Positions 25,775 to 32,182 of a DNA stretch of 64,000 bases are shown here, one piece after another. The position numbers and the translations under genes were made by a program. Numbering within the stretch: the first letter of the stretch is position 1; each line of letters opens with the position of its first letter. The notes under the pieces were generated by a model. The model had not been told where the DNA came from, made no database searches, and worked only from the letters and a program-made list of their open reading frames with translations. The DNA comes from a virus. The stretch spans positions 32,001 to 96,000 of IMG/VR virus record IMGVR_UViG_3300025030_000051. One strand, given 5' to 3'.

Positions 25775-26002
25775 TTATCCATGGAGTATCTCTTTATATC
25801 GTTCAAATTGAGATTTAAACAACTCATCTGTATATAATAATTGTTCTCCGTCTTCATCTATTACTATCCAATCGTTTTTATTTGCTTTTACTTCAGTCAG
25901 AGTTTTACCGCCTTCTGTAAGTAAGATAACCTTTCTATCAGAAATAACTTGATTGGCTATTACTAGATTATTACTTAATTTTTTTTTATATTTTTCGTTC
26001 AT
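25775..26002 (-). CDS. Hypothetical protein
   Basis: DWIVIDEDGE..FKSQFE; overlaps the GT4 stop codon. Confidence 0.55.
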   Translation of the reverse strand: MNEKYKKKLSNNLVIANQVISDRKVILLTEGGKTLTEVKANKNDWIVIDEDGEQLLYTDELFKSQFERYKEILHG

Positions 26003-27336
26003 TTATCTTCTCCAATCTTTTTCAATTTAGGCAAAACTGGTAAGGCAATATTTTCATTAGTACGTTTTAATTTTGGTAATGGAGGAAGTACTATATCTTT
26101 AGTTTCTGGAAACTTAGGGACGTTTTCTTCCATTATTTTATCTAATTCTTCTATCATTTTATCGAATGAAAACTTTTCTTTGTTTTGTTGAGCTAACAAC
26201 CTTGCGTTTGGTAAAAATGTTTGATATCTTTTCCAAACGTCTACCATAACTTGAGAGGCAAATGAATAGTTTATATTGAACCAACTAGAGTTTGGTTCAA
26301 TTACTCCATTCCAAACAGCAGAAGGATGAACCTGCTTAATTTCACCAGGTAACAATAATACTAATTCTTTCGGCAAAAAATCAACATGTCCAGACCATCC
26401 ACTGACCATAATAGGCTTTTCGCTTAAACTTGCTTCAAGCAGAGGCCTACCAAAGCCCTCTCCTTTTGTAAAGCTAACGTGTATTTTTATCTTAGAATGA
26501 TTATATAGTCCATTCATATCTTCAGAAGACAGATCGCCAAATAATAAATAAATATTTGGCAAATCACCCTTTATATCCTTTTTTATTGCTTCAATTTTTC
26601 TAATAGTATCAAGTCTGTCAATATAAGAAAATGTATTTCCAGTTTTTAATAATAAAGCAGGTTTATTAGGCTTATTTTTAAACGTTTCTAAAAATGTCTT
26701 AATCAACATTCCCACATCTTTTCTATCAGCTCCAAGTCCTCCTTGTAGCCAATGGCCTACAAATAAGAAAACAAAATCTTCTTTTATTTTATTTAATTCG
26801 TGCCTAATTTTAGTCTGAATATTTTCAGTTTTATAAAAAATAGAAGTATCAACACCCTCAAATAAAACATGAATTGGTTTAGTACAACTCAAATTACCAA
26901 TAACCTGCTTTGTAACATTATCTTGCTGAGTATATTTTGTATTAACAAAAACGTTCTTAGCAAAAATAGAAGGAACAATATTGAAGTTCATTCTGTTCAG
27001 TCCTTCAATCCAAGCTGGGGAACATATTGTCGTCTCAATACCGGCTGTAATGCCTATATTAAACATTGCTATTTGTTGAAACTCATTTGGAACTGATAGT
27101 TGTATAGAAATTTCTGGTTTTTTTGGTAAATTAGGAGTTGGAATTATTTTAGATATAATTTCATCATCAATGCCCTTTTTTAAAGCAGACCTGGGGAGTG
27201 TTCCCCAACGAATAGATAAAATTTTAATATCATATTTATCTATTTTTAAAAGAGAATTAACTATTGATTTAGAATGTTCGCCATAACCTGAACGGGAATC
27301 AACAGGACCAATAAACAATAAAGTTGGTTTACTCAT
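25999..27336 (-). CDS. Glycosyltransferase family 4 (GT-B)
   Basis: SGYGEHS; FLFVGHW..DRKD; KGEGFGRPLLEA..WSGHVDF. Confidence 0.92.
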   Translation of the reverse strand: MSKPTLLFIGPVDSRSGYGEHSKSIVNSLLKIDKYDIKILSIRWGTLPRSALKKGIDDEIISKIIPTPNLPKKPEISIQLSVPNEFQQIAMFNIGITAGIETTICSPAWIEGLNRMNFNIVPSIFAKNVFVNTKYTQQDNVTKQVIGNLSCTKPIHVLFEGVDTSIFYKTENIQTKIRHELNKIKEDFVFLFVGHWLQGGLGADRKDVGMLIKTFLETFKNKPNKPALLLKTGNTFSYIDRLDTIRKIEAIKKDIKGDLPNIYLLFGDLSSEDMNGLYNHSKIKIHVSFTKGEGFGRPLLEASLSEKPIMVSGWSGHVDFLPKELVLLLPGEIKQVHPSAVWNGVIEPNSSWFNINYSFASQVMVDVWKRYQTFLPNARLLAQQNKEKFSFDKMIEELDKIMEENVPKFPETKDIVLPPLPKLKRTNENIALPVLPKLKKIGEDK

Positions 27337-27666
27337 TATTAATTCCAGTCAAGAAAAATTTTTGTCTAATTCGCAAAAAATCACATTTTAAAAATTTTTT
27401 TATTTCATTTTGTCGCCTAACATCTAATATTTTCATTTTAATCTCTAACTAAAATTGACTGTTTTTCATACAATTTTAATAATGTATTGTCAAAAATATT
27501 TCTATTCATTAGACTCCATTATTTATCATATACTGCATTATAAATGAATATATTCTATTCTTAAAAATAATACTTTTATATTCTTCAAGAAATAATTTAG
27601 CAATAAAATTTAATTTAAAAGAAATGTTTTCATTTATACTATTTAATAATTGTTTTCTTAGTAACA

Positions 27667-29145
27667 TCATATATGTATCAACTCATATCTTTCTCTCGGT
27701 TTAAATTCTTCAAAGCACCTTTCCATATCCTGAATAAATCTTCTGCACATTTCAGATGCCTCCATACCTACTTCTTTTTTGAGCATAAATTCCCTTCCCA
27801 ATAAACCGTATTCCTTTCTCTTTTCATATCCTAAATTATACAGATATAATAGTCCTTCAGCTGCATCTTCCCATTTTGCCCTATCGTCAAAAATATATGG
27901 AGTTGGTGGTGAACCAACTAAACCCCTTGCTGCTGGGAATAATGGAAAAGCCCACTTACCACATTTTTTGAATCTACCATCATGATTACTACCCCATTTC
28001 TTGTCAAACTTAATTGGATTCCCTTCATCATCTACAAATCCCATCTGATCTTGAAGTCCACCAGTAACTGTTGCTAAAATAGGAGTTCCACTCATTAATG
28101 ATTCCGCTGTTGCTAGACCAAACCCTTCAGCACTTGCTAAGTTTATCGTAACATCAGAAATGTTATATAAATAGTTCAATTGAAACGATGGTAATCTTGC
28201 ATCATAATAAATAATATCATAATCCTTACACAATTCATTACCGACCTCTGGTAAATCTGTTCCGTTAGGATCAACTAATTGAGTATGCATTATCAACACG
28301 CATTTTTTTGCATTTTCTTTTGATAATTGATCACAAAACAATTTAAATGCCAAAATTACATCACCTGGAGATTTTCTTTTAATATTTCTATTATTATATA
28401 AAATTATAAAATTATAATCTTTATCACCAAAAATATCTTTCCTATATTTAATCATCCCTTCGTAATCATTCTTTAATTCCTTAACTCCATTGTTATCAAA
28501 TTCACGAACAATTCCTTGCTCTAATTCTGTAATTGGAAAATGGTTTTTTGAATTAATACCGTGTGGGATATAAGTAATTATTCTTTTGTCTGAACCTAAA
28601 ACATTATTAACAATATTTTCAGTCTGTTTACTGATACACATTAATAGATCACATCCCTGATAATAGGAACGATTATAAGTTGGATTGGGAACGTTATCCC
28701 AAACTGTATAAAAAAACAATGGTATTTTTTGTCTTATTTCGTGTTCCATATTAAACATCCAAATAAACTGTCGCGGATCTGTATACATCATTACTGCATC
28801 AATATTTAATTCTTCAATTAACGAACGAATTAAATCTGGATCTCCATAACCATCATTTGGTTGAATGACAACCTTTGCATCTGTTATTCCTAATGTAGCA
28901 TTTACATCTTGAGAAACATCTATACGTTTACCTTTATCTGGATGATTTATGGCAGCGCCAATTTGAAAAAAATTAAACCTATGAGCTGTACCCATTACAA
29001 TTTCTTTTGATACTACACCTACACCTGATGATAATCTTAGCTATAGGTCATCTGATAATAGAAGAATATTTTTACGATCTTTTTGTTGAACGTATTCATA
29101 TTCATTTATTATCAAACGACCTATAGTACCTCCATTCTCTATCAT
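27667..29145 (-). CDS. Glycosyltransferase family 4; true start at 29145 with an in-frame TAG at codon 35 (29041-29043), candidate recoding site
   Basis: GGAG RBS, then MIENGGTIGRLIINEYEYVQQKDRKNILLLSDDL*LRLSSGVGVVSKEIVM, in frame with track ORF 27667-28995 (RNIKRK, EGFGLATAES, TGGLQDQM). Confidence 0.85.
29041..29126 (-). promoter_or_regulatory. 86-nt mRNA stem-loop ending exactly on the in-frame UAG
   Basis: Arms CUAUAGGUCGUUUGAUAAUA... and ...UAUUAUCAGAUGACCUAUAG; 31 of 36 positions paired (29 WC, 2 G-U), 14-nt loop. Confidence 0.85.
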
Positions 29146-29293
29146 TTTTTACTCCAATATAAATTGTTATAAACACTTTTTTGATTATCAAAAATCATCG
29201 AATAGTTATAACCATTATTTATTACACCTTATTTTTTAAGTAATAAATTTTTTTCATTTTTATTAAAAGTCCACATTGATTTGACTTCTACAA

Positions 29294-29494
29294 TTAAATC
29301 ATATTATTTAATGCATCATCTATCAGTTTTTCCAACATATCATCATAAGTAAAAAAAATATCATGTGGTCCAGTTCCATGTAAGTTAGATATTAATTGAC
29401 AAAGTCTGATATCATATTGTTTTTCATATAATTTTAAAAGTTTTTCAATTAAACGTTTTTTATCTTCTGGATCTCTATAATTTATATATTTCAT
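29294..29494 (-). CDS. Hypothetical protein (duplicated at 33955-34147)
   Basis: DIRLCQLISNL..DIFFTYDD. Confidence 0.65.
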   Translation of the reverse strand: MKYINYRDPEDKKRLIEKLLKLYEKQYDIRLCQLISNLHGTGPHDIFFTYDDMLEKLIDDALNNMI

Positions 29495-29676
29495 AATAAA
29501 CTTCCGCTTATTTGTAAATAATTTATTTTATTAACAATTTTATCCCTAAATTGAGATTCACTTAGAAAAAATTTTATACAAGTATCAACAAAATTTGTCA
29601 AATTAATCTTATTATTAAAACAATCAACTTTAAATTCTTTGTATTGACTTTCTTCTAAATTTATAGATGTAAGCAA
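29491..29676 (-). CDS. Small RHH-like conserved phage protein
   Basis: LTSINLEESQYKEFKVDC pattern. Confidence 0.5.
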   Translation of the reverse strand: MLTSINLEESQYKEFKVDCFNNKINLTNFVDTCIKFFLSESQFRDKIVNKINYLQISGSLL

Positions 29677-31969: not shown

Positions 31970-32182
31970 TTAAATATCTTCTTCTTTATAAATTACAAGT
32001 TCGTTCCCATATAAAATTGTAGGAATAGAAGATAATATTTTTTCATTAAGTGTCGGATGTAATTTATCAATATAATCTTTTAATCCTTCCATAGAATTTA
32101 TAGCCTCTAATTCTTTTATAAGTTGCATTTTATTTAATACTTTATTTTTAATAATTAAATCTAAATCTTTCATTTTGCCCAC
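31970..32182 (-). CDS. Hypothetical protein
   Basis: MGKMKDL start; coupled ORF. Confidence 0.5.
   Translation of the reverse strand: MGKMKDLDLIIKNKVLNKMQLIKELEAINSMEGLKDYIDKLHPTLNEKILSSIPTILYGNELVIYKEEDI

Follow-up and report, generated by a model that had tools for sequence, protein, structure and literature searches.

Among phages, gene 60 of T4 and its homologs are the only known cases of efficient programmed bypassing; a 50-nt bypass lies there within an element of the homing endonuclease MobA (Manning & Atkins, bioRxiv 10.1101/2022.08.31.505936; Wills et al., bioRxiv 10.1101/2024.12.09.627546). The gene 60 cassette was termed unique by the authors of that work, and its 5′ stem-loop has been proposed to favour forward movement. 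In the synthetic stop-hops of E. coli, matched codons flank a stop codon and 9 nt are used for one amino acid (Weiss et al. 1987, as summarized in PMC5009743). The summary describes these hops as low-efficiency events in artificial constructs, and it stated in 2016 that no natural in-frame stop-hop was known (PMC5009743). The mitochondrial 'byp' inserts of Magnusiomyces capitatus are 27–55 nt long, as outlined in two accounts (bioRxiv 10.1101/2022.08.31.505936; PMC5009743). A short bypass cassette of the kind proposed below has no counterpart in the published literature.

The DNA analysed here, called the window, is a stretch of 64,000 nt (positions 32,001 to 96,000) of the IMG/VR virus record IMGVR_UViG_3300025030_000051, a metagenome-assembled contig of 112.8 kb that is 63% complete. 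It contains a glycosyltransferase gene of family GT4 with a break in its reading frame. The arrangement is best explained by a mobile cassette, one member of which is present in the window and has remodelled this phage gene at its 5′ end. The interrupted frame consists of the following elements.

29155-29152, minus strand: putative ribosome-binding site GGAG, a consensus match only, 6 nt upstream of the ATG at 29145
29145-29143, minus strand: ATG start codon of the interrupted frame
29116-29145, minus strand: cassette-supplied N-terminal extension of 10 codons, MIENGGTIGR
29044-29046, minus strand: proposed take-off codon CUA, the Leu of the DDL motif
29041-29043, minus strand: in-frame UAG stop codon, with which the 6-nt coding gap begins
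29038-29040, minus strand: proposed landing codon CUA, the same triplet as the take-off codon
27667-29037, minus strand: GT4/GT-B coding sequence resumed past the landing codon, from Arg AGA (29037-29035) to the stop codon (27667-27669)

A sequence-only reading of the window had described the GGAG, the ATG and 34 sense codons ending in ILLLSDDL at the UAG, followed by a repeated CUA and a frame open into a glycosyltransferase; each of these elements was confirmed on the minus strand. An in-frame TTG (29115-29113) aligns with the Met of uninterrupted homologs. From the AGA at 29037, the frame is open to the stop at 27667 and is 58–69% identical to uninterrupted homologs of 480–485 aa carrying PF00534 (Glycos_transf_1), a domain recorded for the 100%-identical protein P0004 and for all listed homologs. 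For the closest uninterrupted relative, a confident structural model (pLDDT 91) agrees with the two Rossmann-like domains of a GT4/GT-B enzyme. In this model, the interruption falls between strand β1 and helix α1, and the peptide encoded before the stop corresponds to the conserved β1 strand. A truncated product of 442 aa, with its start called after the stop, is recorded on 14 contigs from three sources, and a single-protein scan of viral contigs returned nothing close to the window. A second glycosyltransferase gene adjoins at 25999-27336.

Among the approximately 430 homologous loci, an ungapped DD[LIM]R is found in all but the six interrupted lineages, window included, and therefore the window carries a 6-nt insert in an invariant loop. 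The residues D22, D23, R25, S28, and G29 are invariant among 41 aligned sequences. The homolog N-termini had been given as SDDLRxxSG, which is correct, as the homologs read SDDLR[LM]xSG. At the sequence level, skipping the gap restores DDLR as in the uninterrupted copies.

Alignment of the homologs extended the pattern of a stop between matched codons to five further lineages, which are broken at exactly the same codon boundary as the window. The gaps in the six lineages are 6, 6, 6, 6, 13, and 5 nt long, the longest belonging to L067 and the shortest to L079. The stop codon, which may be UAG, UGA, or UAA, directly follows the last sense codon in every lineage. The codon preceding the resumed Arg belongs to the same tRNA box as the take-off codon in all six: the pairs are CUA/CUA in the window, CUG/CUA in two lineages, CUU/CUC in two, and AUU/AUU in a member of the DDI subfamily. 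Since the 5- and 13-nt gaps shift the frame, only bypass would rescue all six lineages. Three pairs of contigs (L133/L229, L302/L328, and L381/L384) each represent a lineage assembled twice. The interrupted copies are scattered on the tree, where they require six label changes. The six lineages are nevertheless not six independent inventions, because the ancestry of the cassette is shared at least in part. The N-terminal extension of the window is homologous to those of L302 and L384, and all three copies have in common the Gly-Arg-Leu codons from which the 5′ arm of the hairpin described below is built. In a mosaic test, the pre-stop segment of the window was no closer to that of L302 (0.70) than to those of uninterrupted relatives (0.59–0.70). 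The five other natural versions of the break suggest that ribosomes hop over the gap.

The stop codon of the window lies at the foot of a hairpin that is preceded by a Shine-Dalgarno-like sequence.

29041-29126, minus strand: 86-nt hairpin with arms 29126-29088 and 29079-29041
29128-29133, minus strand: GGAGGU, one base before the stem

The RNA hairpin has a minimum free energy of −41.5 kcal/mol (z = −5.95), and none of 200 shuffled sequences folds as well. Its 20 uninterrupted pairs are followed by runs of 6, 4, and 2, which gives 32 pairs and an 8-nt apical loop. The earlier count of 31 pairs and a 14-nt loop differs slightly, but its unbroken first 20 pairs and its last paired base, the G of the UAG, stand. 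The 3′ arm encodes NILLLSDDL and the stop, and the 5′ arm falls within the N-terminal extension and the first part of the ancestral coding sequence. A hairpin is present only in interrupted copies, and in all six lineages it ends at the stop or a few bases before it. The five interrupted copies then known had the five lowest folding energies among 260 distinct regions (P ~1e-10), and the region of L384, the sixth lineage, folds at −29.5 kcal/mol over a slightly longer stretch. Comparison of the six cassettes also showed covariation, with compensatory, double-sided changes at 12 of 28 stem positions. A search of Rfam gave only sub-threshold matches to generic hairpins (miRNA precursors), and an intrinsic terminator was looked for and not found. 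Quasi-palindrome template switching was considered as a source of the 6-nt insert and rejected on the reasoning that copying of the 5′ arm would not duplicate the Leu codon.

The stem contains the two G-U pairs from which an RNA-level structure had been deduced. The pairs are real, but the argument for an RNA-only structure is weak because the opposite strand folds about as well (−36 kcal/mol, z = −6.4) and the strand bias is mixed, sense-strand folding being favoured in only three of the five tested among the six related cassettes. Folding on both strands leaves room for a DNA-level role of the inverted repeat. The GGAGGU was confirmed just 5′ of the stem (29133-29128), and a GGAG(G) occurs 3–8 nt 5′ of the stem in five of the six cassettes, in differing reading frames. 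Shine-Dalgarno-like 4-mers are found upstream of 15% of the long ORFs of this genome, compared with a background of 8%. Arguments from Shine-Dalgarno sequences, including any role of the GGAGGU, are uncertain owing to this weak genome-wide usage.

The DNA upstream of the interrupted frame contains traces of a homing-endonuclease gene.

29142-29312, minus strand: decayed C-terminal remnant of a DUF7487 (PD-(D/E)xK, TnsA-like) homing-endonuclease gene
29294-29494, minus strand: 66-aa ORF, family not assigned, within approximately 380 nt of extra DNA

The DUF7487 profile matches positions 29208-29312 (E = 4.9e-6, profile positions 186–220) with a score of 23 bits, below the cut-off of 27 bits. 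The frame is not open, and two TAA codons lie inside the match, one of them placed by eye at 29231-29229. To judge by its sequence, the match is a decayed remnant and not a gene. Its final TGA overlaps the new ATG as ATGA, and its translation has the motif EVKSMWT in common with the intact 335-aa gene of L133, which matches DUF7487 at 1e-45 and the PHROG 'homing endonuclease'. Remnants are present in the window, L067, and L384. A DUF7487 gene or remnant thus adjoins four of the six interrupted copies, window included, with its stop overlapping the new start codon. The cassettes of L067 and L133 share approximately 190 nt at about 95% identity ending at the gap, whereas their glycosyltransferases are merely 60% identical. 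In the window, approximately 380 nt of extra DNA separate a conserved small upstream gene (29491-29676) from the ancestral glycosyltransferase start; in the uninterrupted L294 and L290, about 12 nt lie between the end of the small gene and the start of the glycosyltransferase. The 66-aa ORF within the extra DNA has no Pfam or PHROG match and shows no resemblance to the intact endonuclease. Probing at the DNA level for the endonuclease motif identified three more DUF7487 genes (L234-L236), which are located in unrelated contexts without the cassette. The endonuclease gene adjoins an altered target and is distributed patchily among relatives, as in a homing cassette. The sequence-only reading had suggested that the element could tune glycosyltransferase output. 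Instead of a stand-alone regulatory device, it appears to be the joint of a homing-endonuclease cassette, of which the DUF7487 remnant at 29142-29312 is a part.

The resemblance to gene 60 is one of architecture, and the bypass proposed here is deduced from sequence. In both systems, the take-off codon is immediately followed by a stop, a matched landing codon precedes the resume codon, and skipping of the gap restores colinearity with uninterrupted homologs. The gap is placed in a highly conserved coding stretch, some 25–45 codons after a new start, and the cassette contributes the N-terminal extension. Depending on the member, the neighbouring homing-endonuclease gene is intact, has decayed, or has been lost, while the gap is kept. 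Both have a 5′ mRNA stem-loop behind the ribosome, which may have a driving role here, and a Shine-Dalgarno-like element, whose help in landing is uncertain in the case of the GGAG(G). The gap differs in length, 5–13 nt compared with 50 nt, and has no room for a take-off stem-loop, which in bypassing of the gene 60 type includes the take-off codon and forms in the A site. Bypassing of that type also uses a nascent-peptide signal, and the corresponding peptide here is the conserved β1 strand. The sole strong structure of the cassettes lies 5′ of the take-off codon, which itself sits in the 3′ arm, made of conserved coding sequence, and has its pairing partner upstream. The endonuclease belongs to DUF7487 (PD-(D/E)xK, TnsA-like), whereas MobA is an HNH-type enzyme, and the host gene encodes a glycosyltransferase instead of a topoisomerase. 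Furthermore, the cassette is located upstream of the 5′ end of the gene, which is not split in two.

Like the free-standing seg/mob endonucleases of T4, the DUF7487 gene is intergenic and lies beside a very conserved target that is altered in the carrier. The protecting changes in seg/mob carriers are usually silent substitutions, whereas the change observed here is a stop-containing insertion that has to be handled during translation. The CUA-UAG-CUA of the window has exactly the form of the synthetic stop-hops, and the relatives with 5- and 13-nt gaps would be frame-independent hops of the same kind. Unlike the synthetic sites, the one described here is natural, recurrent, and equipped with a large hairpin. 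Unaided stop-hops in E. coli, the subject of the 1987 work of Weiss et al., are reportedly inefficient. The byp inserts, as far as the accounts named above describe them, are likewise short and mobile; they sit in conserved genes, where bypassing by the ribosome makes them tolerable, and their take-off and landing codons need to match in only two of three positions, comparable to CUG/CUA and CUU/CUC here. In the same accounts, they are mitochondrial and not phage-borne, longer, and GC-rich, their slow A-site codon is an unused sense codon, and neither an endonuclease gene nor a 5′ hairpin is described for them.

Based on these comparisons, a scheme for the cassette and its decoding can be put forward. 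The cassette begins with the free-standing DUF7487 gene, decayed in the window, followed by a new start codon overlapping the endonuclease stop, a short N-terminal extension, and the first ~23 codons of the gene itself. A short, presumably untranslated gap, with the stop codon first, then separates the invariant DDL from the R of the β1–α1 loop. By analogy with T4 mobA/gene 60, disruption of the endonuclease target site is the most likely origin of the gap, or the reason for its persistence, and the gap may protect the carrier. The full-length enzyme is most likely produced by translational bypass. The ribosome would pause with the stop in its A site, the peptidyl-tRNA-Leu would unpair from CUA, and the mRNA would slide by 6 nt. 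The 5′ arm of the hairpin would already be outside the ribosome at the pause, and zippering of the stem onto the 3′ arm would favour forward movement. The sequences themselves show the make-up of the cassette, its recurrence, the covarying stem, and the link to the endonuclease, whereas the hop, its efficiency, the part played by the hairpin, and an immunity function are deduced from them. A CUA-to-CUA hop with the hairpin behind the ribosome was the proposal of the sequence-only reading, and it emerged as the best-supported one after the comparison added five lineages, two of them out of frame; the support consists of comparative sequence. We consider it moderately probable that the locus is a mobile cassette of an endonuclease, accommodated by a short translational bypass in a manner comparable to mobA/gene 60 of T4. 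We give slightly better than even chances to the fuller proposal of a natural family of 5–13-nt bypass sites, in which a hairpin re-formed at the ribosome exit acts as the motor and which is spread by a carrier-protecting DUF7487 endonuclease.

The alternative that survives best is that the break is an immunity scar: the cassette, or faulty repair of a cut, would have put a stop or frameshift into the target, and the glycosyltransferase would be dead or dying. The hairpin would then serve elsewhere, for example in the control of endonuclease expression or in homing at the DNA level, which is in keeping with the folding of the inverted repeat on both strands. This is the simplest reading of an in-frame stop. 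It is in line with the rarity of interrupted copies (approximately six lineages among about 430 loci) and their scatter on the tree, with the decay of the endonuclease in three of the four lineages having one, and with the presence of the neighbouring second glycosyltransferase gene. However, the frames on both sides of the break are open and conserved in all six lineages, and the take-off and landing codons covary, including the AUU/AUU of the DDI subfamily. The 11 pre-stop codons of the window and L302 differ at 8.0 of 8.2 synonymous sites, which is saturation, without a single amino-acid change. The stem is kept by compensatory changes that track the synonymous changes in the coding arm. 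The dN/dS of interrupted copies, 0.09–0.20 compared with 0.05–0.20 for controls, is far below 1, although the values of the window (0.15–0.20 against its nearest relatives) and L133 are mildly above the controls, as a dying gene might show. The nearest uninterrupted relatives are so distant (dS of ~1 or more) that much of the low dN/dS may reflect the time before the break. The interrupted copies have longer terminal branches, which go with larger dS and not with dN/dS near 1. We consider inactivation of the enzyme unlikely, while granting it an appreciable share of our expectation.

It is improbable that the stop releases a β1 peptide of 26–43 residues and that a second initiation just downstream makes the rest of the enzyme, which would function with or without the peptide. 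A split at the domain linker is tolerated in this family, four lineages have an in-frame ATG (the Met of LRM) two codons past the landing codon, and the GGAG(G) at the foot of the folded hairpin could bring a Shine-Dalgarno sequence near this ATG. However, the Met of LRM occurs in uninterrupted relatives too, and the true splits of the glycosyltransferase family, located at the domain linker, show a clear ribosome-binding site and ATG. Such a signal is absent after the gap in the window and L079; in-frame ATG, GTG, and TTG codons are lacking from the first 16 codons past the stop in the window and from the vicinity of the gap in L079. A product started from the ATG at 28995 would lack β1, the invariant DDxRxxSG loop, and most of α1.

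Read-through of the stop or a reassigned TAG, which would add two residues (DDL-X-L-R) in the in-frame cases, is very improbable. Four of the six gaps are 6 nt long and in frame, and the base after the stop in these four is C, which makes for weak termination in E. coli. Gaps of 5 and 13 nt, however, cannot be read through, the stops include UAG, UGA, and UAA, and no uninterrupted copy among the ~430 loci has extra loop residues. Reassignment of TAG was rejected, as TAG ends 19 of 131 long minus-strand frames and the further TAG junctions that keep the frame coincide with ordinary gene boundaries. A suppressor tRNA was also rejected: tRNA-Met is the only tRNA in the 112.8-kb record, which is 63% complete. 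An assembly or sequencing artefact at the strong hairpin, conceivable in an incomplete metagenome-assembled contig, is scarcely credible, as it would not introduce the remnant of a homologous endonuclease together with an N-terminal extension and a 5′ arm that matches, and as the same architecture occurs in five other lineages, three of them assembled twice, and the truncated product comes from three sources.

If bypass does take place, the solution found by gene 60 would have been invented a second time, independently, and the cassette would represent the first stop-hop known from nature. Its natural variants, with gaps of 5, 6, and 13 nt, three stop codons, four take-off codons, and a covarying hairpin, would offer a minimal system for studying what makes the ribosome let go, slide, and land. 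Gene callers systematically truncate genes of this kind, as in the 442-aa product recorded on 14 contigs. If the proposal is true, invariant coding motifs are open to invasion by selfish endonucleases even when no intron or intein is involved.

The interrupted protein is a GT4-type glycosyltransferase whose nearest isolate homolog belongs to Flavobacterium phage immuto (48% identity); metagenomic relatives of 480-485 residues are 58-69% identical to it. Re-reading of the ORF confirmed the positions, the stop and the matched codons described in the sequence-only reading, with CTA as both the codon preceding the TAG and the codon following it on the minus strand.

29145, minus strand: ATG start codon, with GGAG 6 nt upstream
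29043-29041, minus strand: TAG, after 34 codons
To 27667, minus strand: frame open past the TAG for 457 codons, in the same frame

The 5' ends of the gene were compared across viral and metagenome contigs, at approximately 430 related loci. The DD[LIM]R motif is uninterrupted at all of them except in six lineages, the window included. Residues D22, D23, R25, S28 and G29 are invariant in an alignment of 41 sequences, and a confident predicted structure (pLDDT 91, pTM 0.90) of the closest relative without an interruption places strand beta1 at residues 15-22 and the beginning of helix alpha1 at G29. Since the relatives are gapless at DD[LIM]R and the loop is invariant, the 6-nt insert of the window sits between L24 and R25. 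The window start is extended by about ten codons, and the initial methionine of the relatives aligns with an in-frame TTG at 29115-29113. The arrangement of codon, stop and matching codon recurs at exactly the same codon boundary in five further lineages. In all six, the stop directly follows the last sense codon (take-off codon), and the codon just 5' of the arginine (landing codon) is able to pair with the tRNA of the take-off codon.

Codons at the break in the six interrupted lineages (an equals sign joins two assemblies of one lineage)
Window: take-off CUA, stop UAG, gap 6 nt, landing CUA
L302 = L328: take-off CUG, stop UAG, gap 6 nt, landing CUA
L381 = L384: take-off CUU, stop UAG, gap 6 nt, landing CUC
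L133 = L229: take-off CUU, stop UGA, gap 6 nt, landing CUC
L067: take-off CUG, stop UGA, gap 13 nt, landing CUA
L079: take-off AUU, stop UAA, gap 5 nt, landing AUU

The L079 subfamily has isoleucine at the take-off position, and both its take-off and landing codons are AUU. The gaps of L067 and L079 shift the frame, and rescue by read-through is therefore impossible in these two lineages.

The earlier proposal of a stand-alone device tuning glycosyltransferase output was not borne out. Instead, the gene content around the breaks marks the element as the joint of a cassette built around a selfish endonuclease; this cassette combines a DUF7487 homing-endonuclease gene or its remnant with a new start codon, an N-terminal extension, a hairpin and the gap. 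In L133, the glycosyltransferase is directly preceded by a 335-residue ORF that hits Pfam DUF7487 (1e-45) as well as PHROG families with the annotation homing endonuclease. This ORF carries a PD...EVK motif, shows a weak TnsA-like match, and overlaps the new glycosyltransferase start with its last codons. L067 retains just the 3' end of the DUF7487 gene; it has in common with L133 a block of about 190 nt, about 95% identical, that ends at the gap, whereas the enzymes of the two are only 60% identical. Remnants of the gene are also present in L381/L384 and in the window.

29208-29312, minus strand: DUF7487 remnant, profile match E = 4.9e-6, two internal TAA

The translated window remnant carries the EVKSMWT motif, as in L133, and its TGA overlaps the ATG at 29145. 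In the uninterrupted loci L294 and L290, a conserved small upstream gene stops about 12 nt before the glycosyltransferase start; in the window, this gene and the ancestral start are about 380 nt apart. The six interrupted copies are scattered in a tree of the N-terminal domain, each beside uninterrupted neighbours, a distribution typical of the gain and loss of a mobile element.

Other extra ORFs occur around these genes. The DNA between the small upstream gene and the glycosyltransferase of the window contains a 66-residue ORF (29294-29494, minus strand) that matches nothing in Pfam or PHROG and does not resemble the intact L133 endonuclease. In L329, the closest of the uninterrupted relatives, an additional ORF of about 100 residues separates the glycosyltransferase from the conserved small gene, about 330 nt before the glycosyltransferase start; gap and hairpin are both absent. 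The intergenic site before the glycosyltransferase seems to serve inserted genes in general as a landing pad. On another viral contig (L231:1372-2136), a 254-residue endonuclease-like ORF, in which YGV motifs are repeated and the C-terminus has a nuclease-like motif, is located between two glycosyltransferase-like genes, the downstream one uninterrupted. Two tandem glycosyltransferase genes of the window are separated by about 330 nt (27337-27666) with only small ORFs of 53 and 35 residues; the corresponding genes abut in phage immuto (L001:4377/4380), and the spacer may be another decayed insertion.

A strong hairpin precedes the break of the window.

29126-29041, minus strand: hairpin, MFE -41.5 kcal/mol, z = -5.95
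One base 5' of the stem, minus strand: GGAGGT, from reading of the sequence

The stem has 20 uninterrupted pairs and 12 more beyond, and pairing ends with the G of the UAG. The opposite strand folds nearly as well, so that the window structure by itself is an inverted repeat and not proven RNA. Strand preference is mixed among the related cassettes tested, and the argument for an RNA-level structure previously drawn from the G-U pairs is therefore weak. When the 110 nt preceding the landing codon were folded for 259 distinct regions and the window, the five lowest energies belonged to the five interrupted copies then known (-37.6, -36.3, -32.1, -23.4 and -22.7 kcal/mol; best uninterrupted copy -19.6 kcal/mol), a ranking with a chance probability of about 1e-10. 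For the sixth lineage, L384, which was found later, folding of a slightly longer segment gave -29.5 kcal/mol. With the six stems aligned on the take-off codon, pair-preserving two-sided changes were found at 12 of 28 positions; in some of these pairs, such as that of the third leucine codon in window versus L302, a synonymous change in the coding arm is matched by a change in the extension arm. The end point of the stem varies among the six, from 2 nt ahead of the take-off codon to the final base of the stop codon. Five of the six cassettes conserve GGAG(G) beside the stem as a nucleotide sequence, in differing reading frames. Across the whole viral record, Shine-Dalgarno-like 4-mers precede 15% of long ORFs versus 8% in the background, suggesting a host in which Shine-Dalgarno usage is weak.

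The best-supported explanation of the break is a stop-hop, which we consider reasonably probable. The main rival, a loss-of-function scar, is unlikely. The frames are open on both sides of the break in all six lineages, and in the eleven pre-stop codons of the window and L302, 8.0 of 8.2 synonymous sites differ with zero amino-acid changes. The dN/dS of interrupted copies against their nearest relatives is 0.09-0.20 (controls 0.05-0.20); the window and L133 have somewhat higher values, and dS is near saturation. These values speak against long-standing pseudogenes and are still compatible with recent ones. A second split, at the linker between the two Rossmann domains, occurs in L133 (L225:1040-1200), L302 and L381/L384, and also in uninterrupted L342 and phage Mel-JY01 (L002:2965-4456); a stop, an RBS and an ATG accompany it each time. 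Such splits are repeated in the family irrespective of the N-terminal interruption. They provide a useful internal control, because the window and L079 lack RBS and ATG signals of this kind after the gap. Assembly error is argued against by three interrupted lineages that were each assembled twice, from different samples or contigs, and by protein records from three sources in which the truncated 442-residue product of the window is listed for 14 contigs. A changed meaning of TAG was rejected, as TAG is a normal terminator elsewhere (closing 19 of the 131 long coding-strand frames) and the sole tRNA gene of the 112.8-kb IMG/VR viral contig (24.9% GC, estimated 63% complete) is tRNA-Met. The two other TAGs that separate same-frame ORFs mark ordinary gene boundaries, each having an ATG immediately behind the stop.

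The CUA-to-CUA hop of the sequence-only reading remains the best-supported candidate, on six-lineage recurrence, matched codons and hairpin, without the role of free-standing regulator. In the stop-hop, the ribosome would pause at the stop, the peptidyl-tRNA would let go of the take-off codon, and the mRNA would slide by 5, 6 or 13 nt until the tRNA re-paired with the landing codon. Completion of the stem would require forward movement of the mRNA; the same driving role was proposed for the 5' stem-loop of T4 gene 60 (PMC5009743; bioRxiv 10.1101/2022.08.31.505936). Natural stop-hops were unknown according to a 2016 review (PMC5009743), and the literature searched describes neither bypass in a phage glycosyltransferase nor a short-gap endonuclease cassette. 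Most similar among known systems is the gene 60 bypass of T4, located within the MobA element (bioRxiv 10.1101/2022.08.31.505936; bioRxiv 10.1101/2024.12.09.627546), which has in common with the cassette a take-off codon, a stop, a matched landing codon, an N-terminal extension, a decaying endonuclease and a stem-loop behind the ribosome. However, the gene 60 gap is 50 nt long and holds a take-off stem-loop, unlike the cassette, and the endonuclease family and host gene differ. The window is therefore no member of the gene 60 family, although it appears to work like gene 60. Bypass is the one process that would yield a functional enzyme in all six lineages. If the mobA/gene 60 precedent applies, the carrier is probably protected by the gap against the cassette's own endonuclease.
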